DNA of 64,000 nt from a virus. This document shows, one piece after another, positions 3 to 61,200 of the stretch. The notes below the pieces were generated by a model that saw only the letters and a program-made list of their open reading frames with translations, did no database searches and was not told the origin of the DNA. Position 1 is the first letter of the stretch. The number at the start of each line of letters is the position of its first letter. The translations under genes were made by a program, and so were the position numbers. Location: IMG/VR virus record IMGVR_UViG_3300008738_000302, one strand, 5' to 3'.

Positions 3-296
3 TTAAATGAAATAACTTTTAGAAATAAAGAAAGAATTAAACATGGAGAAACTGGTCCAGATTTACTTGATTATTTAGTAAAGAAATATCAATTAGAAGA
101 ATTTGTTTTAGGTTATAATGCGTTTTGTTCAATAGGTTGGCATGAAATAGATAAGTTAATTAATGGAACTAAACTTTCAGAAGAAGCTATAGGATTACAT
201 TTGTTTAATGCTAGATGGGAAGCTGATGGAATTGATATTGATAATTATAGTACATCTAAATCTATTCTTACTGAATTGAAGAAAAAGTATTTATGA
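3..296 (+). CDS. Partial (C-terminal) glycosyltransferase, GT32/alpha-1,4-GT-like
   Basis: Own translation from nt 3: ...HGETGPDLLDYLVKKY...FCSIGWHEIDKL...IGLHLFNARW...KKKYL*. The GxTGPxLL and xHLxN motifs are typical of GT32 C-termini. Its TGA overlaps the next ATG (ATGA 293-296). Truncated by the window edge. Confidence 0.6.
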   Translation, partial: LNEITFRNKERIKHGETGPDLLDYLVKKYQLEEFVLGYNAFCSIGWHEIDKLINGTKLSEEAIGLHLFNARWEADGIDIDNYSTSKSILTELKKKYL

Positions 297-1246
297 AATT
301 AAGTAGAGAGAAAAGAAGAGAAGTAGCATTATATCAAAGTGTTTATTTTTATGATAGGAATACAAGATTTAATACTGATATTCATCCAGATGATTTTTTT
401 CATACAACTAAATTTAGATCTTATTTTGATGATGATAATAGAATTAACGGTATTGTTCCTATAAATAAAATAGAGCAATCTATTTTTTTTAAAGATAAAT
501 ATTATTATCCTAAAACTTATATTAAAAATCCAAAGTTAGAAGGAATTTGGTTTATTAAACCAACGGATGGGTCTTTGGGTAATGATATTGAAATAACTGA
601 TGATTTAAGTTCAGTAAAAAATAATAAAAAAGCTATTTATCAACAATCAATTGATAATCCTTTATTACATAAAAATAAAAAAATAGATTTTAGAACTTTT
701 TTATTATTACAAACATTTGAGGGAAAATTTAGAGCATATTTTTATAAAGATTCTATGTTAAGATGGACAACACTTGATTATAAAAAAGATGATTTTACAT
801 TGGAACGCCAAATAACAAATTATCTTGCAAAAAGAGATGGTAAATTTTTTGGTAATACTATGGTTAGGGCATATTCTAAACACACATATCATTATTATAA
901 AGAGTTACATGAAACTATGAAAAATATTATTGTAGATATTTCAAAAAGTATTTTTGATAGAGTGAATAATAAAACACAAAGAAATATATTTCAATTGTTT
1001 GGTGTAGATTTTATTCCTGATGAAGATAAGAATGTTTGGTTATTAGAAATGAATGGTAATCCAGGTCCTTATTTACATTTAGATAGACCATTAACAAAAC
1101 AATTAAAGAATTGGACTTTAGATATAGTTGAAGATATATTTGATTTAACAGTATATCCAATGTATTATGGAAGAAAAAAAAAGTTAGGTGAATTTGAATT
1201 AGTATTTGAAAAAGATTTACAATTTGAAAAATGGATAGAAGTATGA
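293..1246 (+). CDS. Tubulin-tyrosine-ligase-family ATP-grasp ligase
   Basis: WFIKP..GSLGNDI, IYQQSIDNPLL...KIDFRTFLL, FQLFGVDFIPD...WLLEMNGNP match the TTL/polyglutamylase ATP-grasp motifs. Confidence 0.8.
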   Translation: MKLSREKRREVALYQSVYFYDRNTRFNTDIHPDDFFHTTKFRSYFDDDNRINGIVPINKIEQSIFFKDKYYYPKTYIKNPKLEGIWFIKPTDGSLGNDIEITDDLSSVKNNKKAIYQQSIDNPLLHKNKKIDFRTFLLLQTFEGKFRAYFYKDSMLRWTTLDYKKDDFTLERQITNYLAKRDGKFFGNTMVRAYSKHTYHYYKELHETMKNIIVDISKSIFDRVNNKTQRNIFQLFGVDFIPDEDKNVWLLEMNGNPGPYLHLDRPLTKQLKNWTLDIVEDIFDLTVYPMYYGRKKKLGEFELVFEKDLQFEKWIEV

Positions 1247-1710
1247 ATATTAACAGAAAAAGAGATAGACATATAGTAGATTATTTAAATAATCATTTTT
1301 ATTGTAAATTAGGTATATCAAAAGTTCATGGTATAGGAGTTTTTGCATTAAGAGATATACCTGCTGGTATTGATCCGTTTGTTTTACCTAAAAAAGATAG
1401 GTTGGTTACAGTATATAAAGCAAGTTTGAAAAATTTAGATGAGAATATTAAAGAATGGTTAGCTGAAAAATTTATAAATGATGATAAAGTTCAAACAATT
1501 TTACTTACTGATACTTTACAAAAACAGTTTAAATACTATTTTAATCATAATGAAAAACCAAATTTAGAGTGGAATACACCAAAACATCGCCATCCATGTA
1601 TGCCACCTTGTCCAAAATGTGGCGGACAAAATTTTATTACATTACAAGATATAAAAAAAGATGAAGAAATTTTTGTTAATTATGCTATTGACACTAATAT
1701 TTATAATTGA
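1231..1710 (+). CDS. SET-domain protein (putative lysine methyltransferase)
   Basis: SKVHGIGVFALRDIPAG, YFNHNEKPN (NHSxxPN-like), DIKKDEEIFVNY (EExxxxY). Confidence 0.8.
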   Translation: MDRSMNINRKRDRHIVDYLNNHFYCKLGISKVHGIGVFALRDIPAGIDPFVLPKKDRLVTVYKASLKNLDENIKEWLAEKFINDDKVQTILLTDTLQKQFKYYFNHNEKPNLEWNTPKHRHPCMPPCPKCGGQNFITLQDIKKDEEIFVNYAIDTNIYN

Positions 1711-1742
1711 CATATTTATACTTAGGAATATGGAGTTAATTA

Positions 1743-3077
1743 ATGACATGGATTAATACTAAAACGGTATTCACTTGGAATACTAAGGACAAAAAGTACG
1801 AAGAAACTCTTAATGAGGGTTATGATTATACTGGTCCTACTGCTGAATGTTTTGGTTGTTTTATAGCAGGAACAGCTGTACCTACCTCAGATGTAACATA
1901 TGAGTTGATAGAAAATTTAAAAGTTGGTGATACAGTACTTACAGTTAATACAAATACAAAACCATTCACATTAGAAGAAAATAAAATACTTGAAATAGCT
2001 ACACCTGTTCATGAGAATATGGTTGAGATAAAATTTGATGCTAAAATGTTCAAAGATGGTATGCCAACATATAAGTATAGTTTAGATGAAGCAAAACCAT
2101 CTCCCTCTAAGATAGCAGTTGGTCCGAAGAAATTTCCAGAGTTCTGGCTTGAAGTTTCAGAACTAGATAAACTTTCTGATGATGAGAAAGAAGCAGAGTT
2201 TAATAAATATATTGACGCCACTTGGAAGGATTTAGTAAATACAAATACATTTGATCACCCATATTTGGTAAAAAATAAAGGTTGGTGTTCATATAAACCA
2301 AGTTTAACTAAAGAAACATATAGTATGGATGTTGGTCAGCTTGAAGTTGGTGATATTTGTTATGTGCTCAATCCTGTAAGGGGAAGAAGTCCTTTTACTG
2401 AGGTAAAGATTGTTAGTATTGAAGAAAAAAATGAAGAAACCCAAACATATAACTTAGCTAGTGTTGAAAATAATCATAATTATTTAGCTAATGGTGTATT
2501 AGTTCACAATAAAGAAAGTTTGGGTGGTGAAGATGTAACTATTTTAAGTAGTTCTGTTGACCACGCTGATGGAGAAGTACATGCTTCTATGTCAATTGAT
2601 GATAAAGTTTTAGCAGCTAGTATTTCAGGTTTACCTGATACAGATGTAGCATCAGAATTTTTATTGTGGGAATATACGGGTAGTGATATTGCTTCTCAAA
2701 TTACATTAGTTACTGCTTCAGTTGATTATATTATGTCTTCTTCTCGTAACAATTGGTTAAATATTGATTGTAAAAATGGTAGATCTGATACTTTTAGAAT
2801 TACACCTGGACACCCATTATTAGTTAAGAGTGAAAGTTATGGTGAGGGATATGGGCTTCCTGGTTCTACAGGATCAGCAGCACTTACAGGATCTGTTTGG
2901 TATTTTGATTATGCAGGAGACATTAATACAAATTATAAACTTTTAAGTTCTTCATTGGAAGAGGTAGACATTGAATCAATTACACCATATAGTGCGTCTG
3001 AATCGTCTAGCTTTTTTAGATTTGATATAGAACCACAGGATACATATTTCGTAGATCACATATTAATACATAATTAG
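1743..3077 (+). CDS. Short leader peptide fused to two tandem Hint (intein-like/BIL) domains
   Basis: 38-aa N-terminal peptide. Hint1 runs from C39 (CFIAGT, 1857) through TFDHP to VLVHN256 (2510), followed by K. Hint2 runs from about S259 through TPGHP to ILIHN, immediately before the stop. Confidence 0.8.
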   Translation: MTWINTKTVFTWNTKDKKYEETLNEGYDYTGPTAECFGCFIAGTAVPTSDVTYELIENLKVGDTVLTVNTNTKPFTLEENKILEIATPVHENMVEIKFDAKMFKDGMPTYKYSLDEAKPSPSKIAVGPKKFPEFWLEVSELDKLSDDEKEAEFNKYIDATWKDLVNTNTFDHPYLVKNKGWCSYKPSLTKETYSMDVGQLEVGDICYVLNPVRGRSPFTEVKIVSIEEKNEETQTYNLASVENNHNYLANGVLVHNKESLGGEDVTILSSSVDHADGEVHASMSIDDKVLAASISGLPDTDVASEFLLWEYTGSDIASQITLVTASVDYIMSSSRNNWLNIDCKNGRSDTFRITPGHPLLVKSESYGEGYGLPGSTGSAALTGSVWYFDYAGDINTNYKLLSSSLEEVDIESITPYSASESSSFFRFDIEPQDTYFVDHILIHN

Positions 3078-3084
3078 AGGTTAC

Positions 3085-3999
3085 ATGATATTAACTACTT
3101 CTTATACAAGTCCACCTGGATTTGGTCATAGAATTTTTGTTTGGGAATATCTTTATTTAATTAATCAATATAATGATTTCAAATTTGATTTAGTTTTATC
3201 CGATAGTGTTTATGAGGAAACTAAATATTTAGATTTTCCAAAAACAAAAATAGTGTCGGATGATAGATATACTACTAAGAAATTTAGAGCGAAAAAAATC
3301 GTAGCTGAGATATTAGATAAACAATTAACTTCACACGACCATATGCTCAAAGATTGGGATTGTTGTTATTACCATAACGAAAATATTTTTATACCTGATA
3401 TAGATACTCTTAGACCAATTCAAGAAATTCAAATGAAAGACAAAAAACTATTACAGAAAATAAAAGATACTGTTAAAGATTGTATTGGAATTCATGTGAG
3501 ACGGGGAGATTTAAAAGATGATGGTAGTGAGAATTATAAAAAATGGTTAAATAGAGATAATAACAATTGGAGATATGCATACTTAGAAGATAATTATTAT
3601 CTTACAAGATTAGAAAATCATCCAAATAAAAAATTCTATTTAAGTTCAGATGCTACATTAGAAGAATTAAAATTTATTACAGATAACTATGATGTTATTA
3701 TGAGTGATGATATTTTAGGAGAAAAAAAAGAAAGAATTAAATGGGGATTTAATGACAACTATTATATGCATGGTGGTCCTAAAATAGATTTACATTCAAT
3801 AGTAGATTTGATGGCACTAACATATTCTAAAAAATTTATTGCAAGTAATTCTATGTGGAGTGAATTTATTTCAAATTATAAACAAGATAGTTGGAATAAT
3901 ACAGATACTATTTATCCAACAAGATGTTATAAAGTTGCACCAAGAGAAGGATTATATTATTTGGATTACGGATTTCCGTCATCTATGTTACACTCATGA
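3085..3999 (+). CDS. GT11/GT23-like (alpha-1,2-fucosyltransferase-like) glycosyltransferase
   Basis: IGIHVRRGD donor-binding motif, FYLSSD, DLMALTYSKKFIASNSMWS. Confidence 0.7.
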   Translation: MILTTSYTSPPGFGHRIFVWEYLYLINQYNDFKFDLVLSDSVYEETKYLDFPKTKIVSDDRYTTKKFRAKKIVAEILDKQLTSHDHMLKDWDCCYYHNENIFIPDIDTLRPIQEIQMKDKKLLQKIKDTVKDCIGIHVRRGDLKDDGSENYKKWLNRDNNNWRYAYLEDNYYLTRLENHPNKKFYLSSDATLEELKFITDNYDVIMSDDILGEKKERIKWGFNDNYYMHGGPKIDLHSIVDLMALTYSKKFIASNSMWSEFISNYKQDSWNNTDTIYPTRCYKVAPREGLYYLDYGFPSSMLHS

Positions 4000-4724
4000 G
4001 TTTATATAAACATCCAATAAAATTCGATCTAGATAAATTATTAAAAGAAAAAGACTATGCTGAATCAGTAGTTACATATGATTCAGGATTTAGAAATCAT
4101 TGTATATCTTTGTTAGGTAGAAAAGAAGAAGAAATGGAAGGTTGGAATCTTTATTTAGCAGAAATGAATAGGCATAGAATATGGAAAGATTATAATAGAC
4201 AAGTGAATGTATTATATGATACAGAAATCTTACAAGATATTCCTTTTGATAGAAAACATTTACCTTATATGAATAGTGTATTTGATATATTTAATGAAGG
4301 AACTGAAGTTTTAGTTGCTAGATTAATTCGAAGAGAATCACATTCTTCATACGGCATACATAGAGATTATGGAAAAGGTATGGAAGAACTTGAAGATTCT
4401 AAGAAGATGATGTGGAGATTTCAGATTCCACTTATATCAAATAAAGACTGCTACTTAATTATTTTTAAAGATCATGTAGTTGACAAATGGAAAGAGTTAT
4501 ATGGTGAATATCAATTAGAAGATTTTTTAGATAAACCATCTGATGATTTTCAGGTTCATCATTTAGAGGATGGTTATTTATATCACTTTAAAGTTTGGAA
4601 GTATGCACACACGGTATGGAATATGGGGGAAACAGATAGATATACATTAGTAGTTGATACAATACCAAATGAGTGGATAGAAAATTGGGCAAAGGAAAAT
4701 TTAAATGAAGTTTTACCTTCATAA
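3996..4724 (+). CDS. 2OG-Fe(II) oxygenase, Asp/Asn beta-hydroxylase-like
   Basis: YGIHRD (HxD), RFQIPLISN, AHTVWN (distal His), DRYTLVVD. Confidence 0.7.
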   Translation: MSLYKHPIKFDLDKLLKEKDYAESVVTYDSGFRNHCISLLGRKEEEMEGWNLYLAEMNRHRIWKDYNRQVNVLYDTEILQDIPFDRKHLPYMNSVFDIFNEGTEVLVARLIRRESHSSYGIHRDYGKGMEELEDSKKMMWRFQIPLISNKDCYLIIFKDHVVDKWKELYGEYQLEDFLDKPSDDFQVHHLEDGYLYHFKVWKYAHTVWNMGETDRYTLVVDTIPNEWIENWAKENLNEVLPS

Positions 4725-5673
4725 AGATATTTTATATGAAGATCAAGCGTGGAAAACTGTTAAGTTTTTATTAGATGTAAAAAAAATATCTAATGAGGTT
4801 GTAGATATGCACAATATAGAATCTATAAAGCAATTAAATGTTTCAAGTGATGATATATGTTTTGCTAGATTTGGTCATCATTTTGATGATAAGATAGCAA
4901 CTAATAAAGCATATGATGTATTAACTCAAAAATTTAATAAAATATATCCTTCAAAAGACGCATATTATTATTATGATGATAAATTAAAGCAATATGAATT
5001 TATGTTAGAAAATGATATACCTTGTTTGAAAACATATTATGTAGGTAGTAAAGAAGAGATAGAAAAATTAAATATAAAATTTCCTATAGTTACTAAAAAA
5101 ACTTGGGGGGCTGGAACTGAACAAGTTAATAAGTGGGATGATTATGAATCTATTGTTGATAATAAAGATACTCGAAGTTGGACAGGGGGATCTATATTTC
5201 CATGTTTAGTTCAAGAATATAAAGATGTAGATTATGATATTAGAGTTAGAATTTTAAACTCTAAAGTTTTCTTTACTAAAAGAATGCACGAATTTAAAAC
5301 AAAAAATAAAGATAATTTTCCATATGGTACAAAAGAGATTCTTAAAAAAGATAGAATAAAATATCATTTACCACCATATGAAGTTCCTGTAGCATTACCA
5401 ATAAATGATTTAGCAGAAGTAGAAGATATTATACCTATAGTAGAAAAATTACATAAGATTCAAAATGAAAAATTGAATAGTAATTTTGTGGTGTGGGATA
5501 TTCTTAGAACAAATGAAGGAATAAAAATTCTTGAATTTAGTCATGTTACAGTATATAAAAGTTTTCCACAAATTTATTATGATATAGAATATAAAGAAGC
5601 AAATAAATTAACAATAAAAAATCGTGAACATTTTTTTTATTTGTATAACGAAATATTAAAAGGATTAATATGA
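4705..5673 (+). CDS. RimK/glutathione-synthetase-like ATP-grasp ligase
   Basis: DDKLKQYEFMLENDIPCLKT, FPIVTKKTWGAGTEQV, LVQEY..DYDIRV, WDILRT..G.KILEFS. Confidence 0.75.
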   Translation: MKFYLHKDILYEDQAWKTVKFLLDVKKISNEVVDMHNIESIKQLNVSSDDICFARFGHHFDDKIATNKAYDVLTQKFNKIYPSKDAYYYYDDKLKQYEFMLENDIPCLKTYYVGSKEEIEKLNIKFPIVTKKTWGAGTEQVNKWDDYESIVDNKDTRSWTGGSIFPCLVQEYKDVDYDIRVRILNSKVFFTKRMHEFKTKNKDNFPYGTKEILKKDRIKYHLPPYEVPVALPINDLAEVEDIIPIVEKLHKIQNEKLNSNFVVWDILRTNEGIKILEFSHVTVYKSFPQIYYDIEYKEANKLTIKNREHFFYLYNEILKGLI

Positions 5674-7235
5674 AGAAAGTTATTATAGTTGGTGGTGGAT
5701 TTGCAGGTTACTTAACAGCGTTGTTTTTAAATAAAAAATTTCCTAAATTAAAAATTGATATAATAAAATCATCAGATAAAGAACAAATTTCTGCTGGAGA
5801 ACAAACAGGCAAAGAACAACTACAATTGTTTTTTGAATCATTAGGAATTGAAGAAACTGAATGGTTTAGTAGAACAAAATCTTTTTTAAAAATAGGTAAT
5901 TCTTTTGTTGGGTGGGGAAACCGTGAAAATTTTGATCCTCGAGTTGGTGGACCAGATGTAGTTAATCATAGTTTTGTAATGGAAAATAAATTATTACCTT
6001 TACTTAGGAATGGTGGTGGTATGAAATCCGTAAAGGATTCTATGAAATATAATGATAAGTTACATACTGAATTATATCAAAATAGTTTTTTAGAAACACC
6101 CATAGATAATACGGATGATTATATAGATAGTTTTAAAAAACACTTTAAAAATAGTTTTTTTAATAGAAAGAATAATAGAGCCATAGCTCATATGCATGAT
6201 TGGTTAGAGATAGGTAAATTTATAGAAACTAAGTTTGATGATAATGTTAAAATAATTACTGATCATATAACTGATGTGGTTGTAGATAAAAAAAATAATA
6301 CTATAGAATATCTTGTTAATAAAGATAAAGAAAAGATTAAAGCAGATCACTACGTAGATTGTACAGGTATTAGTAGAATTTTGATTTCTAAACTTAGTAA
6401 AGTTGTAGATATTAGTGATGAATATCCTGTAAATAGTGCCGTATTTGGTCCAGTAGAATATATAGATAGAACTAAAGAGATGGTGCCAACCTTATATACT
6501 ACTGCTTTTAAAAATGGTTATTCATTTAAAACACCATTACAACATAGGATAGGAACAGGATATGTCTATTCAGATAAGTATATTAGTAAAGATGAAGCAA
6601 TAGATGAGATAAATGATTATTGGGATGGTAGATTTAAGTCAGATCAAGTTAATCATTTAAAATGGACTCCATCTTATGTAGTTAAACCTTTTCAGAAAAA
6701 TTGTAGCGCTGTAGGATTAGCAGGACAATTTGATTGTCCAATGGAATCTACAGTATTTACTCAGATATCAACTGCTCTTCAACAATTAGGAAATTATTTA
6801 AATAGAGATAATAAATTATTATACATGAATCGTTCTGATATAAGAGATGAAGATATGTTAAATTATTGTAATACTTGGACTGAATATACTTTTCATAATA
6901 CAAGACATTTTAAACAAATGATGTTTTATACTACAAATAGAGATGATAGCGAATTTTGGAAGAATATTAAAACACTTAATTATTCTGATATTTTTTATAA
7001 AAAATTAAGTTTCTTTTTAGACAATTCATTTGATTATATAATAGAAAATAGAAATAAGTTTCCTGATTATACTCCACCAACAAATTTTAATATTAATGAA
7101 GATAGATTTTGGAGAGTATATCAAAAAGGATTTAAAGGATATTTTGATTATATGGGAATAAGGGGTGTAGGACATAGTATGATATTAGATGTTCATAATT
7201 GGTTAATGATTCTTGCGTATAAAAAATACATTTAA
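5670..7235 (+). CDS. FAD-dependent tryptophan-halogenase-like oxidoreductase
   Basis: VGGGFAG Rossmann motif, YVDCTGISRIL, PLQHRIGTGYVYS, AVGLAGQFDCPMEST. The WxWxIP motif is degenerate (YSFKTP). Confidence 0.75.
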   Translation: MKKVIIVGGGFAGYLTALFLNKKFPKLKIDIIKSSDKEQISAGEQTGKEQLQLFFESLGIEETEWFSRTKSFLKIGNSFVGWGNRENFDPRVGGPDVVNHSFVMENKLLPLLRNGGGMKSVKDSMKYNDKLHTELYQNSFLETPIDNTDDYIDSFKKHFKNSFFNRKNNRAIAHMHDWLEIGKFIETKFDDNVKIITDHITDVVVDKKNNTIEYLVNKDKEKIKADHYVDCTGISRILISKLSKVVDISDEYPVNSAVFGPVEYIDRTKEMVPTLYTTAFKNGYSFKTPLQHRIGTGYVYSDKYISKDEAIDEINDYWDGRFKSDQVNHLKWTPSYVVKPFQKNCSAVGLAGQFDCPMESTVFTQISTALQQLGNYLNRDNKLLYMNRSDIRDEDMLNYCNTWTEYTFHNTRHFKQMMFYTTNRDDSEFWKNIKTLNYSDIFYKKLSFFLDNSFDYIIENRNKFPDYTPPTNFNINEDRFWRVYQKGFKGYFDYMGIRGVGHSMILDVHNWLMILAYKKYI

Positions 7236-7265: not shown

Positions 7266-7409
7266 ATGATAGATACAGAAAAATTTATAAAAAACCTACA
7301 TAAAGAAATAAAACGTAGAAAAGAACGTAAACAACGTGTATTCAATACTATTTATTTAGTAGGAGTGTTTATCTTTGATTTTATAATAGACACAGGAGAA
7401 TGGATATGA
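7266..7409 (+). CDS. Small basic membrane protein (47 aa), not in ORF track
   Basis: MIDTEKFIKNLHKEIKRRKERKQRVFNTIYLVGVFIFDFIIDTGEWI*: basic stretch followed by a hydrophobic segment. Confidence 0.35.
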   Translation: MIDTEKFIKNLHKEIKRRKERKQRVFNTIYLVGVFIFDFIIDTGEWI

Positions 7410-7741
7410 AAAAATATTTATTAATGTTTGCTTTTATTTTACCATTAATGGCTCAAGAAGTTGAAGTTAAAGAAGTAGATGGTAAGACAGAAGTTACCGT
7501 TAAGAAACAACACGATAAGAAAAAATGGGATCGTGGCAGTATGAAGCGCGGTATGGACAGACGTGATAAACGAATGATGATGGCTAAACGAAAAAAGATG
7601 CAAAGGAAGAGATTCTGGCGCTCAGCAGTTCGTGTAGTTGTTATTGGTGGAGTAGCTTATTATGTTGGATATACTCAAGGCCAAAAGCATGAACATAAAC
7701 GTGGTTGGAATAAAAAACCATATATGGGTGATAGAAAATAA
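7400..7741 (+). CDS. Exported/membrane protein, hypothetical
   Basis: Signal peptide (MKKYLLMFAFILPLMAQ), Met/Arg-rich helical region, TM segment; AGGAG RBS. Confidence 0.6.
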   Translation: MDMKKYLLMFAFILPLMAQEVEVKEVDGKTEVTVKKQHDKKKWDRGSMKRGMDRRDKRMMMAKRKKMQRKRFWRSAVRVVVIGGVAYYVGYTQGQKHEHKRGWNKKPYMGDRK

Positions 7742-8325
7742 TGAAACTTAAAAAAATATTAATGAGTTGTGTATTACTTTTTGGGAGCTTGTCTCTATCG
7801 GGATGTTATACGCAACTCTCTATGTTTTATCCTGAACCAGAAATCGAAAATGATGATAGTGAACAGTTCTACGAAACTTATTCAAGAGCAGTTCCAAGAC
7901 CTCTTAACGTAGGTATTTACGCACAAGACGGAGCAGGAACACCATTGAGTTTAGCTTATAGTTCAATGTATAATAGATTTCAACCATACTATGGATTTGG
8001 TTATGGTTATGGTAGAAGTGGTTACTATAATAGTTACGGAACTTATTATGGATATGATTCATATCTAATAGGTGGATATACAATGTATGTTCCAGTTAAT
8101 ACAGGTGAAAGAAAACCAAGAACATTTTCTACAAGTAGAGATAGTGATGGTTCACCTGGAACAAATTTAAATGTTACAAGAACAAGAAGTTCCAACACTT
8201 CACAATCAAGTAATAGTGGTTATAGTAATAGTTCGAATGTATCAAGTACAAGAAGTTCTTCAGGGCGCTCGTCAAGTTCTTCCTCAAGTTCTAATTCAGG
8301 AAGAAGAGTAACCAAGAGGAATTAA
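7741..8325 (+). CDS. Lipoprotein with Tyr/Gly-rich core and Ser/Arg-rich disordered tail
   Basis: Lipobox LSLSGC; tail SSTRSSSGRSSSSSSSSNSGRR. Confidence 0.65.
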   Translation: MKLKKILMSCVLLFGSLSLSGCYTQLSMFYPEPEIENDDSEQFYETYSRAVPRPLNVGIYAQDGAGTPLSLAYSSMYNRFQPYYGFGYGYGRSGYYNSYGTYYGYDSYLIGGYTMYVPVNTGERKPRTFSTSRDSDGSPGTNLNVTRTRSSNTSQSSNSGYSNSSNVSSTRSSSGRSSSSSSSSNSGRRVTKRN

Positions 8326-10193: not shown

Positions 10194-10670
10194 ATGACTA
10201 AAATCGCATTTCGTACAAACATCCCTTACTTCGATAGGGATTCTTTTTTGACCCCGTTTGATAAAATATTCGATCAAATGGTTGAAACTCATTATCCAGA
10301 AATAACAAAATCCGTTGGTGTAAAACCATATGGTAATACTGCATATCCAAAAGTTAACGTATATGAATACGACGACAAAGTGGGTATTGTAGCAGAGATT
10401 CCTGGATTAAACAAGAAACAACTCAAAGTAGATGTTGAAGATGGAACTCTTACAATATCTGGAGATAAACACGGTTCTTTAATGAAAGATCAAGGTGCTA
10501 GAGTTATCCGTAAGGAATTAAAGCAATCTTCATTTAAAAGACAATTTGAATTGGGTGAGTTGTTAGATGGTGAGAACATTTCAGCCAATTTTAAGGATGG
10601 AATTTTATCTGTCTCAATTCCTAAGATGGAGCAGGAACAACCGAAGAAGACTACTGTAAAAATATCCTAA
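10194..10670 (+). CDS. hsp20: Small heat-shock protein (Hsp20/alpha-crystallin)
   Basis: PKVNVYE...AEIPGL.K..LKVDVEDGTLTISG...SFKRQF.L...ISANFKDGILSVSIPK. Confidence 0.92.
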   Translation: MTKIAFRTNIPYFDRDSFLTPFDKIFDQMVETHYPEITKSVGVKPYGNTAYPKVNVYEYDDKVGIVAEIPGLNKKQLKVDVEDGTLTISGDKHGSLMKDQGARVIRKELKQSSFKRQFELGELLDGENISANFKDGILSVSIPKMEQEQPKKTTVKIS

Positions 10671-12260: not shown

Positions 12261-15053
12261 ATGAAAAACAAACGTAATCTAATCTCATTGGTAATAACAT
12301 TTCTAATGCCTATGTTCATTTATGGACAAAGTGTTAGTGGTACGGTTGCTGATGAGGCAGGGAATCCTTTGGCTGGAGCTAATGTAGTTGTACAAGGAAC
12401 TGATTTGGGTGCCGCTTCTTTGGAAGATGGTACTTATTCGATTAAAATCGGAGAAGGTTCACATACACTAATAGCTTCTGTTATCGGGTATGAATCATCT
12501 TCACAAACAGTAGATGTTAGTGGAGATATTAGTCTCGACTTTAGCTTAGCGGTTTCCGCAGTCGAGATGTCAGCATTGGAAGTTTTGGCTTCCCGTGCAG
12601 GCGAAAAAACACCTGTTGCTTATACTACGGTAGAAAAAGCAGATATGGAATTCCGTCTTGGTAGTCAAGACCTTCCAATGGCGCTTAATCTAACACCATC
12701 AGTATATGCTACGCAACAAGGTGGTGGTGCGGGTGATGCTCGTATCAATGTTCGAGGTTTTAATCAACGGAATGTAGCAGTAATGATTAATGGAGTACCA
12801 CAAAATGATATGGAAAACGGTTGGGTTTATTGGTCCAATTGGGATGGTGTAGCAGATGCTGCACATTCTATCCAGATGCAACGTGGTTTAAGTGCTGTTA
12901 ATTTAGCTACACCTTCCATTGGTGGAACTATGAACATAATTACAGACCCTACCTCTCACATAAAGGGTGGTAAGGTAAAACAAGAAGTTGGTGCTGGTGA
13001 TTTTCTTAAAACTACAGTAAACTATAATACTGGCTTGATAGGTGATAAATTTGCCTTGAGTGGTACAGTAGTACGTAAAACTGGTGGTGGAATCATTGAC
13101 AAAACGTGGACAGATGCTTGGGCATATTACTTTGGTGCAAGTTACGCACTAAATGCTGATAACCGATTTGAATTATACGCAATCGGTGCGCCACAGCGAC
13201 ACGCACACAATCTATATAAACAGAATATTGGTGCATATGATGCTGATTTTGCTGCAAGTATAGATGGATATGATACTGAAGCACTTGGTGAAGATGGTAA
13301 GTTCAAGGATGTTGGACGTACATTTAATCAAAATTGGTCTCCAGTAGACCCATCATATACAGGTAAACAATACTATTATATGTATGGTGCTAAAACAGTA
13401 GCAAGACACGATCCCAACTTTATTAACGAAAGAGAAAATTTCTTTCACAAGCCTTTAGTAAACCTAAATCATTTTCTAACTATTAATGACAAAACAATGT
13501 TAAGTTCAGTATTGTATTGGAGTGGTGGTTCAGGTGGTGGTACAGGTACTTATGGTAGGATTCCTACTATGGATGCTGATGGTAATCTTGGTGATGATGA
13601 CTATAAATTTTATTATGGTCGTTCTCCCTGGACACGTGATTGGAATGCTCTTATCGCTATGAATAGTGGTGATTCTGATACAGTTTATGTAGACAAAAGA
13701 GTAATCACACGCACACATGGTATTGATAATAATCAATCTGTAGGTATTTTGAGAAATAGCATTAATCGTCAGAATACATATGGCCTTATTTCTAAACTTA
13801 ATTATGATGTAAGTGATGAACTTCAATTACAATTAGGTATAGATTGGAGAACTGCTGGTATAGAACACGCACGTGAAGTACGTGATCTAATGGGTGGTGA
13901 TTATTATGTGGATTATGCTGATGATAATGTACCTGATGGTAAAAGAGTTGGATTAGGTGATATAATCGCTTATCATAACTCAACCACAGTTGATTGGTTA
14001 GGTGGATTCTTACAAGGAGCTTATGCTTCAGGTCCACTTTCAGCCTATGGTATGGTAGGATTATCACAGATTGGATATTCATATCAAGACCATTTTACTG
14101 TAGCCGATGAGAAGATTGTAGCAGATCCTATTTCCACTTTACAATGGAAAGGTGGGGCAATGTATGATGTTACTGATAACGTTTCAGTTTTTGGTAATTT
14201 TGGTATTGTTGAAAAGCCACCAATTATGGATAATGTAATCTATTATGATGGTACGGTTGCTTCAGATCCTGCAAATGAAAGATTTGTAAGTTCAGAAGCT
14301 GGTGCTCACTACGCGACGGATAAAGTAGCAGTTAAAGTGTCTGCATATAATACAGATTGGAAAGACAGAAACCTTACCAAATCTGTAACAAGCGGACAAG
14401 GTTCAAGCGGTGATACTGATGTGATTTTCCTTTCGGGGATAAATCAGAATCATAAAGGTGTTGAAGTTGAAGCTTCTACACAAGTACTTGATGTACTTAA
14501 CTTACAAGCTATAGTAAGTCTTGGTACTTGGAAGTTTGTAGGTGATGCAGCAGGTAACTATCAAGAAGATGAGTTTAACGAAGAAGGTCAAGTTATCGGA
14601 CAGACAACTACACCTTATTCTTACGCACTTGATGGTTTGTTTGTTGGTGATATGCCTCAAACATCTTACGCACTTGTTGGAACGCTTACACCAATTAAAG
14701 GTCTAAAAATGCAAGCAGTATACAAACAGTATGATAATAATTATGCTGATTGGAGTCCTGACGCTCGTGAGTATGATGGCTCAGATGCTGGTGCAGATAG
14801 AGAACAAGTATGGATGGCACCTGGATATTCCAGAGTTGACTTACATGCTTCATATGCTCTACCTTCAATTGGTGGTATGGATTTTACCGCATTTGCTCAT
14901 GTATTTAATGCAACAGATGCAACATACATTCAAGATGCAGTAGATCATAGTCAGTATAATAGCTACGGAGATAAAACTCACGCAGCACACAACGCTGAAG
15001 TTTTTCTTGGAACACCAAGATACTTTAACGCAGGAATTTCTGTAAATTTCTAA
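12261..15053 (+). CDS. TonB-dependent outer-membrane receptor with N-terminal carboxypeptidase-regulatory-like domain
   Basis: Signal peptide; VSGTVADEAGNPLAGANVVVQGT..G.Y.I; plug INVRGF...VMINGVP...IQMQRG...GGTMNIIT; beta-barrel repeats; C-terminal Phe (ISVNF). Confidence 0.92.
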   Translation: MKNKRNLISLVITFLMPMFIYGQSVSGTVADEAGNPLAGANVVVQGTDLGAASLEDGTYSIKIGEGSHTLIASVIGYESSSQTVDVSGDISLDFSLAVSAVEMSALEVLASRAGEKTPVAYTTVEKADMEFRLGSQDLPMALNLTPSVYATQQGGGAGDARINVRGFNQRNVAVMINGVPQNDMENGWVYWSNWDGVADAAHSIQMQRGLSAVNLATPSIGGTMNIITDPTSHIKGGKVKQEVGAGDFLKTTVNYNTGLIGDKFALSGTVVRKTGGGIIDKTWTDAWAYYFGASYALNADNRFELYAIGAPQRHAHNLYKQNIGAYDADFAASIDGYDTEALGEDGKFKDVGRTFNQNWSPVDPSYTGKQYYYMYGAKTVARHDPNFINERENFFHKPLVNLNHFLTINDKTMLSSVLYWSGGSGGGTGTYGRIPTMDADGNLGDDDYKFYYGRSPWTRDWNALIAMNSGDSDTVYVDKRVITRTHGIDNNQSVGILRNSINRQNTYGLISKLNYDVSDELQLQLGIDWRTAGIEHAREVRDLMGGDYYVDYADDNVPDGKRVGLGDIIAYHNSTTVDWLGGFLQGAYASGPLSAYGMVGLSQIGYSYQDHFTVADEKIVADPISTLQWKGGAMYDVTDNVSVFGNFGIVEKPPIMDNVIYYDGTVASDPANERFVSSEAGAHYATDKVAVKVSAYNTDWKDRNLTKSVTSGQGSSGDTDVIFLSGINQNHKGVEVEASTQVLDVLNLQAIVSLGTWKFVGDAAGNYQEDEFNEEGQVIGQTTTPYSYALDGLFVGDMPQTSYALVGTLTPIKGLKMQAVYKQYDNNYADWSPDAREYDGSDAGADREQVWMAPGYSRVDLHASYALPSIGGMDFTAFAHVFNATDATYIQDAVDHSQYNSYGDKTHAAHNAEVFLGTPRYFNAGISVNF

Positions 15054-18206: not shown

Positions 18207-18401
18207 ATGACAAAAGAAGAGATTCTAACAGAATTAGAATCAATTGGTTATCAACTAGATTCAACATCTAATGGTTTTGTTGAAAATGATTCTGATTTAA
18301 GTGGTGCAAAAACTGATTTAAATTGTTTGATTGACAATTTAGAAAAAAAAGTGATCGCAGAAAATTTAAAATATGAAGATATTCAGATAGATGGGTGCTG
18401 A
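18207..18401 (+). CDS. Hypothetical acidic protein
   Basis: AGGAG RBS; coding-like composition. Confidence 0.55.
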   Translation: MTKEEILTELESIGYQLDSTSNGFVENDSDLSGAKTDLNCLIDNLEKKVIAENLKYEDIQIDGC

Positions 18402-18813
18402 TATGAGATTACCAAGTAAAAAAGAAGTAAAAGCTATTAAAGAATCTAGTAGAAAAAAAGTTTATTCGAAATCTGATAAAGTTGTAGCACAGATGGAAGA
18501 AGAATGGCCAGAAATGACTAAAGAGTTTAAAAGATTACAACATGAACAATATGTGTTGTTCTTACATAAGCAACATGATTATGGTCCAGGTAATATAAGT
18601 GTTGGCACACAATTAAAAACAGCTGAAGATATTAAACTATCTTTAATGGGTTTGTGGTTTAGAATGAATGATAAGATTCAAAGATTGAAAACTTTATTGA
18701 TGAGTGGTAGAAATAATGCAGTAGAGGGCGAACCTATGGAAGATGCTTTTCTCGATGTATCTAATTATGGTATAATGGCAACAATTGTAAAAAATGGAAA
18801 GTGGGGTAAATAA
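18391..18813 (+). CDS. Nucleotide-modification-associated domain 1 (DUF1599/MazG-like all-alpha)
   Basis: KQHDYGPGNI, RMNDKIQRL, EDAFLDVSNYGIMA. Confidence 0.7.
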   Translation: MGADMRLPSKKEVKAIKESSRKKVYSKSDKVVAQMEEEWPEMTKEFKRLQHEQYVLFLHKQHDYGPGNISVGTQLKTAEDIKLSLMGLWFRMNDKIQRLKTLLMSGRNNAVEGEPMEDAFLDVSNYGIMATIVKNGKWGK

Positions 18814-51622: not shown

Positions 51623-51847
51623 ATGTCTAACGATATTTGGGAATTTGGGGAAGGATATCATAAGGTTCATACGGAATCTATTGATGTTGCCAAAAAAATT
51701 GCCAAAATATGTAATACTGACAGTTCTACCGAATACGTTAAAGATGGAAACGTCTTTGCTTGGGACTTTGTAGTCGAAGATTCTTTACTTCCAAAAGTTA
51801 AGAAAATCGTAAGAGGACATATTGCAGCTAAAAGTTCCGTTTCGTAA
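51623..51847 (+). CDS. Hypothetical protein
   Basis: GGGAG RBS; short ORF. Confidence 0.55.
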   Translation: MSNDIWEFGEGYHKVHTESIDVAKKIAKICNTDSSTEYVKDGNVFAWDFVVEDSLLPKVKKIVRGHIAAKSSVS

Positions 51848-55255: not shown

Positions 55256-58200
55256 ATGATATTAGAACGCAGAGTTAGAAAACAAAACCTACATAAGTTA
55301 GACATTCTAATTCAAGATACCACCAATGAATTTTTACAAATTCTTGATATCCCTGACACTTTGCCAGAAGGTCGAAGTTCGTTTTTAATTAATGGTTCAC
55401 CATTTTTAAAATTAACTACAGACGTTTTAGTTGAAATATTAGATAGGGATAACAATACTGTATTTGTAAACCCTGTATTTGATCCTCATTTTGTTGCGAT
55501 GGAAGGAACTGCTAGGGCTATTACAACTGAAATCTATCAAAGTACTCCTGGTGGAAGAGCATTATTAACAGTTGTTGGAGAACTTGATCATACTAAATTT
55601 TTAGGTGAAGTTCCTTTAACTCCTGATTTATTAGATCAATTAGCTGTAGAATCAGATCCACTTTTTACAGGTAATGTTTCTTTTGCTCAAGCAGTTTCAG
55701 AAAATTATTTTATACCTGAAGAGTTCAGAGGAGTTTATAATGTTAAATATACAAAAGTATTACATATAAATCCCAAAGCAAGAAATACACAACCTATAAA
55801 ATTTTATAGAGCACCACAGATACAAGCTAGAGAAATTATTAGAACAGAAGTATCACCATCAGAATCAATTTTTATAAAAAATGTAGTTGTGTCTGATGGA
55901 CAAATGAAAGGGTCTAGAGTAAATCCTTCTGATGGTTCTTTAAGATTAGTAGATCCTGCAGAAATAGCTCCTGTAAGATCTGTAATTGCTTGTGATAATA
56001 ACGCACAAGGAACTAATAAAGTAATAGGAACAATATATAATAGACAGTATCCAATTACATTAACTTCTGCTGATTCTTTTGGTAGTATTATTAGAAGAGA
56101 TTGGGAGTTTGGAGATCCACACGTAACGGCATCTCAGTATTTGGATACGTTACCAGCACAAACTTATACTTATACCAAAGCTGGAATTTATAATGCTAAA
56201 TTAGTTGTACATAGTCCTACAGGACAATATGATTTAGATAGACAATCAATAACAATTTCTAATCCACCTGCTCCAGTTGCAGATTTTACTTCACTTGACC
56301 CAACCACAAATACGGGAGAAACAGTTAAAATTACAGGTAGTATGGAGGATCCAAATTCAAGGACTTTTAGATTTAAAGATACTACCACTAATGTAGTGGA
56401 TATTGTAGATCCGTTAATATTTGGAACAAAGTTTAGTAATTTAAATGATACAGAGTATAGTTGGTCTTTTGGTGATGGTAATACATTTAATGGTATTGGT
56501 AACACTGCAAGAAATCCTGAAAATACATATGTACAATCGGGTTCATATAATGTAGCACTTACTGTTAAGAATGCATATGGTACTCAAACTAATACTAAAA
56601 CGAGTAACAATCATATTTTAATTCAACCTTCTTTACCAACGGTAGATTTTTCTGTTGATTCAGGAAGTATTAGTCAAGCACAAGCATTATCTGCGGCATC
56701 CGCAACTGTACAATTTACTAATAATTCAGTTTATTATGGAGATTCTATTTCATATGCTTGGACTTTTAATTCAAGTGGAAGTACCTCAACGGCTGTAAGT
56801 CCAACTTGTATTTATACAGGTTCATATGCGGCAGATACTACTTTTAATGTAACATTAACTGCTACAGATAATTTTGGTAGAAGTGTAACTGTAACTAAAC
56901 CAAATATGATTAGTATTACACCTTCTATTCCTGTTCCTGATTTTAGTGCAAATATAAGAGAATTTACTTTAGGACTTGGTGGTTCACAACAAGTACAGTT
57001 TACAGACGAATCTACTTCAGAAACTAACTTAACATATGATTGGTATTTTAATGGTGCTACGACAGGAAGTAGTTTATTGACTAGTAATAGTTCTACTATT
57101 GAAGGTGGATTGACTGGAACTGTTTGGGGAAATGGGGCAAGTGATGGTGCAACTTTAGATGCATCTACAGCAACATATCGTTCAGGTAATAAATCTTTAA
57201 GATTAAGAAATCTTACTGCTGCAGATTTAACTGATGTTTATACTTTTGGTTATGATATTGGTAATTCTGGAATATCTGATTTAAATACGTGGAAAGCACA
57301 GTATAGTTTAGCTGATATTACTCAAGGTGATTCTTATACTATGGAATTTTGGGCTAAATCTGATTTACCCTGGTTATCACCAACTATTCTTGCAGGAATG
57401 TTTGGTGCTAATGCAAATGGTAATATTTTTGGAGCAGGTCCTACAGAAGATACTTGGGTTATAAAAGAATTTCCTGTTACTAATAAATGGCAGAAATATA
57501 ATTTTACTTTTACTTTTAAGCACCCAAATAGTAAATACCTTACAACTCGTTTAGGTGTTAATGAATTAGGTCAAGGAAGTGGTCATATTTATTTTGATGA
57601 TATCTATGTTTATAAAGCTAATTCTACATTACAAAATCCAAAAGTAACTTATAGATCAAGAACTGATGGATCAAGGGGAACGGTTAGATTATCTGTAACA
57701 AATACAGCTGGAATTGAAAGATCTGAAACAAGAAGTAATTATATAAATACTTTAGTTGGAAAACCATCCGCTTCATTTACAATAGATGATACTACGGTAC
57801 AAACTCAAGTTCCTATAACATTTAATGGTGCAGGTTCTGATTCATATTCACCAATACAACATTTTAGATGGAATTGGGGTGATGGAACATTTGATAACAT
57901 ATATAGTGGTGTTGAAACTGCAACTCACAAATATACAACAGCAGGAACTTATACACCAAAATTAACTGTTTATTCTGCTGATGGTACGTCTACCGAAGTT
58001 AGTGTGGGGAATGTTACAATTAGTGCACCACCTGCACCGACAGTAGCTTTAAATTTTAGTCCAAATTCTTATGATCAATCACAAGGAGAAACACCTCATG
58101 AAGTAGAGGTAGAAGCAGTTATTTCAGGGCAAGCAACTGCAAGTAATATTACATTTGGTCAAGGTGATAGAACAAATTCTAGATTAGGTTTTACTGTTTA

Positions 58201-61200
58201 TGATACTCCTGGAACATATACAATTACTGCAACGGCTTCTGGGCCAGGTGGTAGTAATTCAGCAACCAAAACAATAACAGTTTCTGCACCACCTGTACAA
58301 ATAGAACCTGTAGATGAAATTGAAGATCCCGATCCAAATTTATTTGATGAAACTTTATTAGCAAATCAAGCAGGTTCAAGTTTAGGAGCAGGTTCAGGTA
58401 CAGGACAAGATCCACCTTCACCATATGGTAGTGGTGGTGGAGGCGGTTCTCCAGGTTGTGTTTTAGCAGGAACAATTCTTAGAACTTCAAGGGGAGAAAT
58501 ACCTGTAGAAGAAGTTACTGTAGATGACTTATTACTTTCTTATAATTTTGATAGTAAGGAATTTGATTATTATAAAATAGAAAGTGCGTGGAGTACTACT
58601 CAACCCACAAGAGTTTTTGTTGAAACAGAAAATGGCAAATCAGTAGAATGTTCAGATACACACTTATTCTATCATCCTGATTATAAGAACCAAGAGATTT
58701 GTGTAAAAGATTTAAATGTTGGTGATATAGTTTATACTATTGATGATGATGAAAATGTAATAGAAGATCCAATTAGAAATATTACTATTTTTGATGAAGA
58801 AGTAACAGTATATAACTTTAAAGTTCCTGTAGTACATTCTTATATAACTAATAATATTATATCTCATAATGCACAGAAATCAGAACCTGAAGGTAATAAC
58901 CCATATAATATGCCATATTTTATGAATCTAGCTTCTCCTGAAACAGAAAATTTTGTGATTGAAGCAACTGGAGATGATTCTATAGATTTTACAAGACATA
59001 TGTTGGGTGGAACATTACAAATTTTCCCAAACACAGGTTCAACGGATATGGATATTTTAAATTCCAATACTGAACCTTCTAAGAGGTATTTAGTAACACA
59101 GCAACCATTAGTTACTAAGATAAGAAAAATTAAAACTAATAAAACTATTGTTCCTGATGTAAACGGATTAATTGTTCAGAATAGATTAGATAAAGATAAA
59201 GGTGTTGTATTTAGTGAGTATCAAGATTTTGGTGCTAGTAGTTATTCGATGAGTTTTCAAAGACCCGTTACTGCTTCGTTTAGAGTTATAAATAAAAAAT
59301 CTTTTGCAAAAATAAATTTAACACAATTAAGAACATATTCAGGAGATGTATCTAGAGTAAAAGTATATTATCAAACTGCTGCACAGAGTGGATATAATCT
59401 TATTGGTGAATCTGTACTTCAAGCACCTGAAATATTAGCAGACCCTGGTGTGCGGTTTGGAAAGAAAAAAATTGGATATTTTTCAGATCAAGGTCATTTA
59501 GATTATTATTGGTATAGTAGAGAAGGTTTTCGTGCAGGTTTTTGGGGTGGAGTAGATTCTGCAGATAGTGTTTTTGGTTGGAATACACCAACTGCTTCTT
59601 TAACACACCAAAAAACACCATATATAGATACTATGAAAATATCTGGATCTAACTATAACTACAATGAGGTAGTGGGTTTATTTCATAAGTTTCCAATGAG
59701 ATTAGTTGCAGGAGTAGAATATACACTTAGATTTCAATTATCAGGAATAAAAAAGAAAAAACAATTAGATAAAGATCAAGCTGCAAAAATTGGAGCTAGT
59801 TTTCCAGCAGCACATAAGAGTCAAGCTAAAATAAGATTTTATGTATCGGGTTCAAGTTTAAAAGCAACTACACCATATGGTTATGATTTAGGTTATGCAG
59901 AATTAGAAAGCGCTGTTTCAGAATCTTATGATTATGTAGAACATAATTTTAGGACTACTAAAAATGGTGATGGTAGATTACAATTAGTTGCTGAATCGGG
60001 TGAGTGGTATATAAATGATTTAAGTATTAAACCAGCAAGAGAGAGTGGATTTAGTCCTGATTTTTCATCATTAGTGGTGCCAGTTCCAGAATTGGCTCAA
60101 AAACCAAGTGATATAGAATTTTATGCAGAGTTTTTTGATTTAAATAGTAATGTTGCTAATATACTTGCAATAGGTAAGCAATCAGAATTATTTCAAGGTT
60201 CTTCTTTAGTTATAGAAGGAACTGATAATACAATATCTGGCTCATTATTTTTAGGTGGAGATACAGAAGGATCAGGTATTGAGGTACATGGTGGTTCATC
60301 TTATATAAGAAATATTGGATACTTAGGGTATAATAGTGCTTCAATGACACAAACTCCTGAAATGCCTGAAAGAGGTAAAGCAGGATTTATGCTTTGGAGT
60401 GGATCTTTATTAACAGATATTACTGATGAATATAATTTAGGTGATGTTGGTTTTGAATTACATGGTGGTCCAGGAGTAAGAAATAATACAGCAGGTGCTA
60501 TGAGATTCCGTTCATCTACAGGTAGACTTGAAGTTACGGGCTCAATTGTAGCAACTGATGGACATTTTGCAAGAAATTTTAGTGTAGGAACGGGTTCAGA
60601 AGCTATAGAAATTTCTTCTTCTAAGTTTATAATGAAAACAAAAAATTGGAATCATCCAACTTCAAGTGCAGGTTGGGCTATAAGTGGTAGTGGAGAAGCA
60701 TTTTTTCAAGAAGGTCAGATAGGTGGTTGGCAATTAAAAACATTAGATAGGGGAACTGTACGAGAAAGAGCGGTTTTAAGTGGAAGTAATATAACATTGG
60801 ATGCGGGTGGTGCAGCACTTTATATGTCTAATAAAGGACCAGGTTCAGATCAAGTAAATCAGTTTACAACTTTAGCAGATGAATATTATTTAGATTTTAC
60901 ACCATCTCAAAGTGAGGCAATACAATCATCAGATTATTATGTTTCATTTGGACCTAAATTTAAAGTAGATAAAGATGGAACATTATTTGCAAGTGGTGCA
61001 AAATTTGTTGGAACGATAACTGCAAGTGCAGGTTTACTTGGTGGATTTAATATAGGTTCTGCTTCTATGTATGCAGGAGCACCAGAAGGTTCACCAAATT
61101 TCTTTTTAAGTGGTTCTGCGACAGGTAATAGTGGTAAATCTTCATATTTTATATCTTCTTCAAGATTTCAAGTAACAGCAGAAGGTGATATAACAGGTTC

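Follow-up and report, generated by a model that had tools for sequence, protein, structure and literature searches.

The window analysed here is the whole 64,000-nt stretch of virus DNA taken from IMG/VR record IMGVR_UViG_3300008738_000302, and it opens with a cassette of tailoring-enzyme genes built around a gene for a predicted self-processing Hint protein. Eight open reading frames (ORFs) occupy the + strand at 3–296, 293–1246, 1231–1710, 1743–3077, 3085–3999, 3996–4724, 4705–5673 and 5670–7235. In order, they encode the 3' part of a GT32-like glycosyltransferase, a tubulin-tyrosine ligase (TTL) family ATP-grasp ligase, a SET-domain methyltransferase, the Hint protein, a GT11-like protein, a probable 2-oxoglutarate (2OG)/Fe(II) oxygenase, a divergent ATP-grasp ligase and a flavin-dependent halogenase-like protein. 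An earlier reading made from the letters of this DNA (the sequence-only reading) had described eight packed, co-oriented genes, and ORF calling confirmed all eight. Neighbouring genes overlap at five of the seven junctions (by 4, 16, 4, 20 and 4 nt) and are separated by 32 and 7 nt at the remaining two; GC content is 25–30%. Judged by comparative gene order, the constant parts of this module are the terminal domain of the Hint protein (Hint2), the GT32-like protein and the divergent ATP-grasp ligase, and the other enzymes are interchangeable.

The Hint protein and its relatives

The gene at 1743–3077 was claimed to encode a 38-amino-acid (aa) peptide followed only by Hint domains, which proved correct: residues 1–38 are the peptide, and two domains, Hint1 and Hint2, make up the remainder. 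Hint1 (1857–2510, +) is a Cys-type domain resembling bacterial intein-like (BIL) domains, with catalytic positions C39, T169-x-x-H172 and H255-N256 and with K257 at the +1 position. Fold searches with the predicted structure place it closest to BIL2 of Tetrahymena BUBL1 (6tmm, Z 21.5), and Foldseek agrees. Other matches are the Clostridium thermocellum BIL (2lwy; Z 19.1, root-mean-square deviation 1.5, 31% identity), Hedgehog/Hog (1at0, Z 17.1) and inteins (Z 15–19). Hint1 has the canonical intein residues Cys1, block B TxxH and terminal His-Asn (C39, T169/H172 and H255-N256, all conserved), but it lacks the +1 Cys/Ser/Thr nucleophile of canonical inteins; nearly all members have Lys at this position, and a few have Ile, Glu or Val. 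Its Hint fold, His-Asn end, non-nucleophilic +1 residue and lack of an endonuclease domain are those of an A-type BIL.

The internal insert of Hint1 (residues about 104–162) has no family match in the Pfam scan and varies among strains, and the AlphaFold2 (AF2) model has predicted local distance difference test (pLDDT) values below 50 at residues 104–136. The strain-variable segment, a low-confidence loop plus helix at residues about 111–162, lies at 2074–2226 (+). Contigs from three other seawater studies have 27 nt in place of these 153 nt, a net loss of 42 aa, with gene order kept and 98–99% identity, and the shorter loop is the same as that of a 402-aa variant of the protein (P0005). Pfam also reports an AXH (ataxin-1/HBP1) match on residues 167–210, which is block B of Hint1 (1.2e-15). 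AXH structures are weak matches in fold searches (Z 4.2–4.4), and the Pfam AXH model, as this suggests, overlaps Hint-like sequence.

Hint1 is missing from about half of the family. Around 40 base forms without it, seen with both of the main cargo types, are 190–228 aa long and consist of a short N-terminal peptide, a Gly-rich linker and a Ser-type Hint. On a tree of 69 Hint2 domains, presence and absence of Hint1 switch at least 11 times, sometimes between near-identical Hint2 sequences. With so scattered a presence, Hint1 behaves as a sporadic intein-like insertion at the peptide/Ser junction. One base-form gene (L075:1014–1676) has an in-frame stop in the Gly-rich linker and could be a pseudogene, an assembly error or a case of recoding.

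Hint2 (2517–3074, +) is the terminal Ser-type domain, with S259, H357 in the motif I-T-P-G-H-P, and H443-N444 directly before the stop codon. The Pfam scan was blind to the C-terminal 188 residues that contain it. It is assigned as a full Hint domain because hhalign aligns residues 259–444 with Hint1 from end to end (98.3% probability, E 1.9e-13) with the catalytic positions matched: S259 falls on C39, I-T-P-G-H357-P on block B (H172) and the last H-N on H-N. This alignment is the basis of the fold assignment, as fold searches with the full-length model were filled by Hint1; the AF2 model of a form lacking Hint1 (P0075) reached a pLDDT of 52.6 and was not used for fold search. In the family alignments, Ser1, the block B His (TxxH) and the terminal His of Hint2 are invariant, the terminal Asn is nearly so, and more than 35 positions are invariant at 40–50% overall identity. 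By this measure, Hint2 is under strong purifying selection. Its most conserved stretch is an almost invariant insertion of 19 residues relative to Hint1 (G-L-P-D-T-D-V-A-S-E-F-L-L-W-E-Y-T-G-S; 2628–2684, +). The terminal Hint ends in H-N or H-D in all of the 51 and 35 aligned members and also in the distant mini-Hints described below; the exceptions are one member ending in L-V-E-G and one in H-S. The residue before Ser1 of Hint2 is Glu or Asp in ~60% of base forms. Glu and Asp C-termini are the kind of end that RimK and TTL enzymes extend.

The cargo is the most changeable part of the protein. In the window, it is a 38-aa type II peptide (1743–1856, +) reading M-T-W-I-N-T-K ... G-P-x-A-x-C. 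Two cargo types share M-K...W-x-x-K, one of 22–27 aa (type I) and one of 40–43 aa (type II), and a third type has 15 aa. The type II peptide is confined to this family, to which all 80 of its matches belong. Nine members have only Met-Gly (as Met-Gly-Cys or similar) or a few residues before Hint1, and the loci with a cargo-less Hint gene have no separate peptide gene nearby. The sequence-only reading had placed a Hint-processed precursor at the centre of the cassette, but the 38-aa peptide is not a conserved substrate-like part: cargoes have 22–27, 40–43 or 15 aa, or are just Met-Gly, and the mini-Hints of a distant subgroup have none.

The family is small and marine. Searches returned 70 relatives of the Hint protein among 5.8 billion proteins and, for Hint2 alone, only 21 representatives among 1.8 billion proteins. 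A metagenome scan gave 80 Hint loci, and Tara Oceans, ENA and JGI seawater assemblies supply most of the members. Every source annotates the protein as hypothetical. Near-identical copies of the cassette occur in seawater metagenomes of at least 11 other studies; among the public runs listed as holding it, none was of RNA. Searches of GenBank phages turned up nothing related to the Hint protein, the TTL protein or the mini-Hint, and in IMG/VR no Hint2-family relative was found besides the contig from which the window comes.

A variable island with constant partners

Conservation of the neighbourhood was assessed by calling and clustering ORFs in 92 loci, with partners counted over those loci with distinct Hint proteins that reach far enough. 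The test of neighbourhood conservation that the sequence-only reading had suggested came out positive: in a tailoring island that is conserved but highly variable, the Hint gene is the non-enzyme element that stays fixed. In 21 of 24 loci, a GT32-like gene is found no more than 4 kb upstream of the Hint gene, and in all of 22 loci an ATP-grasp gene follows within 8 kb downstream. Fifteen of the 24 loci have a TTL gene upstream, and most of these carry the long cargo type; this co-occurrence was set aside as evidence, since it follows phylogeny. The SET gene adjoins the Hint gene in 12 loci, a minority, and no halogenase homologue occurs in any other locus of the 92-locus clustering, which makes it a lineage-specific addition. 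Only the GT32-like and ATP-grasp genes are constant partners; TTL and SET are variable, the halogenase is unmatched elsewhere and Hint1 is optional. Partners in relatives include sulfotransferases, SPASM and B12 radical S-adenosylmethionine (SAM) enzymes, GT7-lectin fusions and sugar-nucleotide enzymes. Gene starts in the related loci often overlap the preceding stop by 4 nt. A functional link between the terminal Hint, the ATP-grasp ligase and the GT32-like protein is likely because this synteny runs so deep.

The module occurs in two contexts, which are found together on one 179.5-kb contig. The window-type context comprises genes for a MoxR-type AAA ATPase, a nuclease, a thioredoxin, the GT32-like protein, an oxygenase and/or a sulfotransferase, TTL, sometimes SET, the Hint protein, the GT11-like protein and the ATP-grasp ligase. 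The fibre-type context begins with giant tail-fibre genes with Peptidase_S74 ends, followed by a second protein with a Ser/Thr-rich cargo and a Cys-Hint, a 361-aa protein without a known family, the GT32-like protein, the Hint protein, the ATP-grasp ligase, GT7-lectin fusions and radical-SAM enzymes. The second cargo-plus-Hint family beside the fibre genes (L003:1635–2384, L066:7288–8058, L098:7153–8217) has a basic N-terminus, a Ser/Thr/Asn-rich region of 100–180 aa and a Cys-Hint ending in H-D (or in H-N plus 8 residues).

An IMG/VR search with the ATP-grasp profile extended the pattern to a remote phage group of seven loci with ATP-grasp proteins of 27–29% identity. A GT32-like gene is present in all seven, and the Hint gene ends where the ATP-grasp gene starts in six of them. 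Five of the distant Hints are mini-Hints of 134 aa that end in H-D and align to Hint1 from position 15 onwards (98.0%, E 1.5e-13); they therefore lack the strand that carries residue 1, the N-terminal nucleophile. Mini-Hints, each directly before an ATP-grasp gene, lie in L101 and L103–L106 (about 7400–8000) and at L023:4428–4832. One distant locus encodes a peptide, a Cys-Hint and a mini-Hint. Persistence of the trio in the remote group argues that the pair of ATP-grasp and terminal Hint is older and more constant than any cargo.

Enzymes, candidate promoter and surrounding contig

The enzyme labels given by the sequence-only reading stood up unevenly. Those of TTL, SET, the halogenase family and Hint are solid and that of the GT32-like protein holds at family level, but the GT11-like, Asp/Asn-hydroxylase-like and RimK-type labels are weak. 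The TTL protein (293–1246, +) scores 92.5 bits against a Pfam TTL cut-off of 20.1 (3.6e-26) and matches PDB tubulin-tyrosine ligases at 1.3e-11, in line with a predicted role as an amino-acid ligase. The SET protein (1231–1710, +) scores 40.5 bits against a cut-off of 22.4 (4.1e-10) and has the motifs NHxxxPN and E-E-I-F-V-N-Y (C-terminal Tyr). The halogenase-like protein (5670–7235, +) matches Pfam Trp_halogenase with 198.7 bits (2.1e-58) and phrog_2928 at 6e-72, the only match in a PHROGs search of the cassette proteins. It is 27% identical to "tryptophan halogenase" genes of cyanophages and pelagiphage HTVC008M. It has GxGxxG and a candidate Lys in F-L-K-I-G-N-S-F, and its WxWxIP position reads Y-S-F-K-T-P. 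This motif is degenerate, so the putative halogenase may catalyse either halogenation or oxygenation.

The GT32-like ORF (3–296, +) is truncated by the edge of the window; the complete gene (L002:5744–6472, 242 aa) starts 432 nt before it. The window protein reaches 22.7 bits against a Pfam cut-off of 23. Among 19 orthologues, 18 match Gly_transf_sug (best 6.8e-8), 14 match Caps_synth and 11 match Gb3_synth, and the D-x-D motif is invariant. The GT11-like (fucosyltransferase-like) protein at 3085–3999 (+) falls below the Glyco_transf_11 cut-off (13.6 versus 23.9 bits); six of 11 orthologues match this family (best 5.9e-4), only around H-V-R-R-G-D, the HxRRGD motif that prompts the label. The probable AspH-like 2OG/Fe(II) oxygenase (3996–4724, +) is also below cut-off for Asp_Arg_Hydrox (19.3 versus 22.6 bits, 1.1e-3), with the match limited to the C-terminal 36 residues. 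An HxD...H pattern (H-R-D plus a distal His) was seen by eye, and only four orthologues were found. PDB sequence and profile searches gave no match for the GT11-like, GT32-like and oxygenase-like proteins. By its profile matches, the 4705–5673 (+) product is certainly an ATP-grasp protein. Its RimK-like placement is divergent, with scores below the cut-offs of the Pfam RimK (19 versus 21 bits) and NCBIfam rimK_fam (34.4 versus 143.4, 1.4e-8) models, and the best PDB profile matches are PurK and ITPK1 (about 2e-4), with RimK at about 0.8.

Two tandem TTGACA...TATTTATA motifs (1688–1720, +) stand at the only real intergenic gap of the cassette, ~20 nt before the Hint start. In about 24 related loci (L010–L098), TATTTATA stands at the same place, ~20 nt ahead of the Hint start; it is not enriched across the window (9 found, 6.3 expected). 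In the fibre-linked context, the Hint start overlaps the GT32-like stop instead of following TATTTATA. TTGACA...TATTTATA is a candidate that may be a dedicated promoter of the Hint gene, and perhaps a promoter element of this phage group. A sigma-70 consensus scan gave 59 promoter-like sites compared with 72 in shuffled sequences, and a terminator scan found none.

The window belongs to a 69.5-kb IMG/VR virus contig with a CheckV completeness of 38%, and all long ORFs are on the same strand. A baseplate wedge protein is 50% identical to that of Microcystis phage Mel-JY01 and 43% identical to those of Flavobacterium "immuto" myoviruses. These phages, the closest cultured ones by baseplate protein, are without the module, and no cultured phage carrying it was found. 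A phage-encoded gene for a SusC-like TonB-dependent receptor with CarboxypepD_reg and Plug domains lies at 12261–15053 of the window and hints at a Bacteroidota-type host. Upstream of the window, L002:2312–5601 encodes a MoxR-type AAA ATPase, a staphylococcal-nuclease homologue and a thioredoxin, a block that is syntenic with the cassette in many relatives. Two genes downstream of the cassette (window 10194–10670 and 18391–18813) encode a small heat-shock protein of the HSP20 type and a protein with a DUF1599 "nucleotide modification associated" domain. A single 1052-aa ORF at 51822–54980 matches SbcD-like and SbcC-like nuclease subunits and is an apparent fusion. The window closes with an ORF of more than 2900 aa (55256–64000) that has PKD repeats and an internal Hint similar to PT-HINT/Intein_splicing at residues 1075–1205; giant fibre genes like this one sit directly upstream of the Hint module in relatives.

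Interpretation and biological meaning

In its sequence features, the module resembles several known logics, namely Hog/BIL autoprocessing and RiPP-like (ribosomally made and post-translationally modified peptide) or carrier-protein systems. Hint1 shares its fold, Cys1, TxxH, terminal His-Asn and non-nucleophilic +1 residue with the A-type BIL of C. thermocellum (2lwy), but it sits in a phage, between a 22–43-aa peptide and a second Hint, and is present or absent between close alleles. BIL2 of BUBL1 (6tmm) has the closest fold to Hint1, and the nearly invariant Lys after Hint1 recalls the Lys amines that are the BIL2 acceptors. The phage cargo, however, is not ubiquitin-like, and the downstream element is another Hint. 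With Hedgehog/Hog (1at0) the protein shares a cargo followed by a protein-ending Hint, the Hint fold and an expected ester-mediated release of cargo. Unlike Hog, Hint2 uses Ser rather than Cys, keeps a terminal His-Asn and has the 19-residue insert, and its cargo is tiny or absent. The Gly-Cys site and sterol-recognition region of Hedgehog proteins are also lacking, as the cleavage site is X-Ser, with X mostly Glu or Asp, and His-Asn closes the protein.

Most relatives have precomputed matches to PT-HINT (PF07591) of polymorphic toxins, in which the Hint domain serves in self-release of an attached module. The Hint protein of the window has no PT-HINT match at E ≤ 0.01 in the Pfam scan, and no toxin domain follows the Hint, the C-terminal domain being itself a Hint. 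Graspetide/microviridin RiPP pathways are similar in that a peptide-bearing gene lies beside an ATP-grasp gene and variable tailoring enzymes, including SPASM/B12 radical-SAM enzymes. They differ in that neither leader peptidase nor transporter was found at the phage loci, the "follower" is a Hint and the peptide can be absent. Hint chemistry may take over the part of the leader peptidase, as the sequence-only reading proposed. A RiPP precursor is bound and modified by its cluster enzymes; for the phage loci, synteny is what is seen, and some members lack a peptide. LysW/LysX offers a further likeness, in that a RimK-family ATP-grasp and enzymes able to act on a tethered group accompany a small protein whose C-terminus is fixed. 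The difference is that the carrier here would have a Hint fold with Asn or Asp at its end and that release would be autocatalytic.

The reading that we favour, with a probability of about 0.4, takes the cassette as one form of a Hint-anchored tailoring module: Hint2 would release or transfer the cargo, neighbouring enzymes would decorate it and Hint1 would be a self-removing insertion. The Hint gene would be transcribed from its own TATTTATA-type promoter. Hint1 would form a thioester at G38-C39 and excise itself through cyclization of Asn256, with the amine of the nearly invariant Lys257 resolving the thioester to give the peptide-linker-Ser-Hint arrangement that is already present in the genes of half of the family. 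Hint2 would form an ester at E258-S259, from which the N-terminal peptide would be set free or passed to an outside nucleophile. Co-encoded ligases and transferases would decorate the released peptide or its new C-terminal Glu, and Hint2 with its invariant 19-residue insert could act as a docking scaffold for them. The product would most likely be a modified peptide or peptide-glycan tag for virion or tail-fibre biology. In favour of this reading, the neighbours include typical peptide-tailoring families (SPASM and B12 radical SAM, TTL, SET and 2OG oxygenases). BIL2 of BUBL1 joins its upstream cargo to Lys amines by an isopeptide bond and needs no ATP to do so (PMC8616854). A complex prediction for the ATP-grasp and a base-form Hint from the L090 alignments gave a score of 0.13 (mark 0.32), which speaks neither for nor against binding. 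Several observations weigh on the other side: the cargo is dispensable, given the nine Met-Gly-type members without a peptide and the distant mini-Hints without cargo or residue-1 strand; three of 24 loci have no GT32-like gene; an uncultured 484-kb phage has an ATP-grasp relative with neither a Hint nor a GT32-like gene within 9 kb; and many neighbours are glycan-building enzymes with possible other targets.

In a rival explanation, the enzymes form a virion or tail-fibre glycosylation island, decorating fibre or capsid proteins or remodelling host surface glycans, and the Hint protein would not be their substrate but a co-inherited accessory that cleaves itself, perhaps a factor in assembly or attachment. 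We consider this unlikely. The module does follow giant fibre genes (Peptidase_S74 C-termini, collagen or fn3 repeats) in many relatives, the second family with Ser/Thr-rich cargo and Cys-Hint adjoins fibre genes, the structure neighbours in the Atlas are viral proteins in which a Hint-like C-terminus follows fn3, DUF642 or Laminin_G_3 cargo, and the PKD protein of more than 2900 aa in the window has an internal Hint. In the window and its nearest relatives, however, the module lies between the MoxR-AAA/nuclease/thioredoxin genes and small ORFs, far from structural genes, and adjacency of ATP-grasp and Hint across deep divergence would be left unexplained. The virion-decoration kit that the sequence-only reading had offered as its alternative is in keeping with how often the module comes straight after giant tail-fibre genes. 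In another explanation, the Hint family might have no functional link to its neighbours and be an intein-like element, selfish or decaying, that persists among the auxiliary genes of a hypervariable island, which we regard as very improbable. Hint1 acts like a mobile insertion and has strain-level indels, island content turns over fast and one member has an in-frame stop in its linker. Such an explanation fits Hint1 but not Hint2, which is under strong purifying selection, has neither a homing endonuclease nor a host protein to ride in, and keeps a fixed position relative to the GT32-like and ATP-grasp genes in about 90 loci and in the remote group.

A different role for the ATP-grasp is conceivable by analogy with LysX, which loads the LysW carrier protein by ligation at the LysW C-terminus. 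The ATP-grasp would use the alpha-carboxylate of the last Asn or Asp of the terminal Hint as the attachment point for an amine, which could be an amino acid or amino sugar. Other enzymes would build on the tethered group, and cyclization of Asn/Asp, the usual reaction at the C-terminal end of inteins, would release it; any cargo present would instead be spliced onto the group. The terminal H-N or H-D has nothing to cleave unless something is added to it, the cargo is dispensable, no partner is more constant than the ATP-grasp, whose gene often comes next, mini-Hints retain the C-terminal catalytic half without the N-terminal nucleophile strand, and most of the variable enzymes are sugar-oriented, DegT-type aminotransferase fragments among them. 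Ligation onto the terminal Asn of an intein has no precedent, however; the terminal HN may persist for folding reasons, one member ends in L-V-E-G and one in H-S, and the invariant Ser1 and TxxH of Hint2 would not be needed. Such a self-releasing carrier is distinctly unlikely in our judgement. Still more doubtful is the wider proposal that the terminal Hint works as a carrier that can be reloaded and frees its own load, or as a "semi-ribosomal" splicing ligase, for which the ATP-grasp would install a C-extein post-translationally on the last Asn/Asp. Island enzymes would elaborate this C-extein, ending in succinimide release or in splicing of the N-terminal peptide to a non-ribosomal amine such as an amino sugar.

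The favoured reading of a Hint-anchored tailoring module points to an undescribed route to make or attach a modified peptide or glycoconjugate during infection. Literature searches on Hint with ATP-grasp, RiPP or phage, and on TTL with SET in phages, found no description of such a module. Known uses of Hint domains are inteins, Hedgehog processing, BILs and toxin release, and a stand-alone phage Hint, apparently tied to an ATP-grasp and a glycosyltransferase in the middle of a fast-evolving tailoring island, would be a new use. If the link is functional, the module would represent a self-cleaving scaffold for making modified peptides or glycoconjugates and a natural intein-like insertion at the active junction of another Hint, and it would offer an entry into virion decoration or host-surface manipulation by large marine phages.

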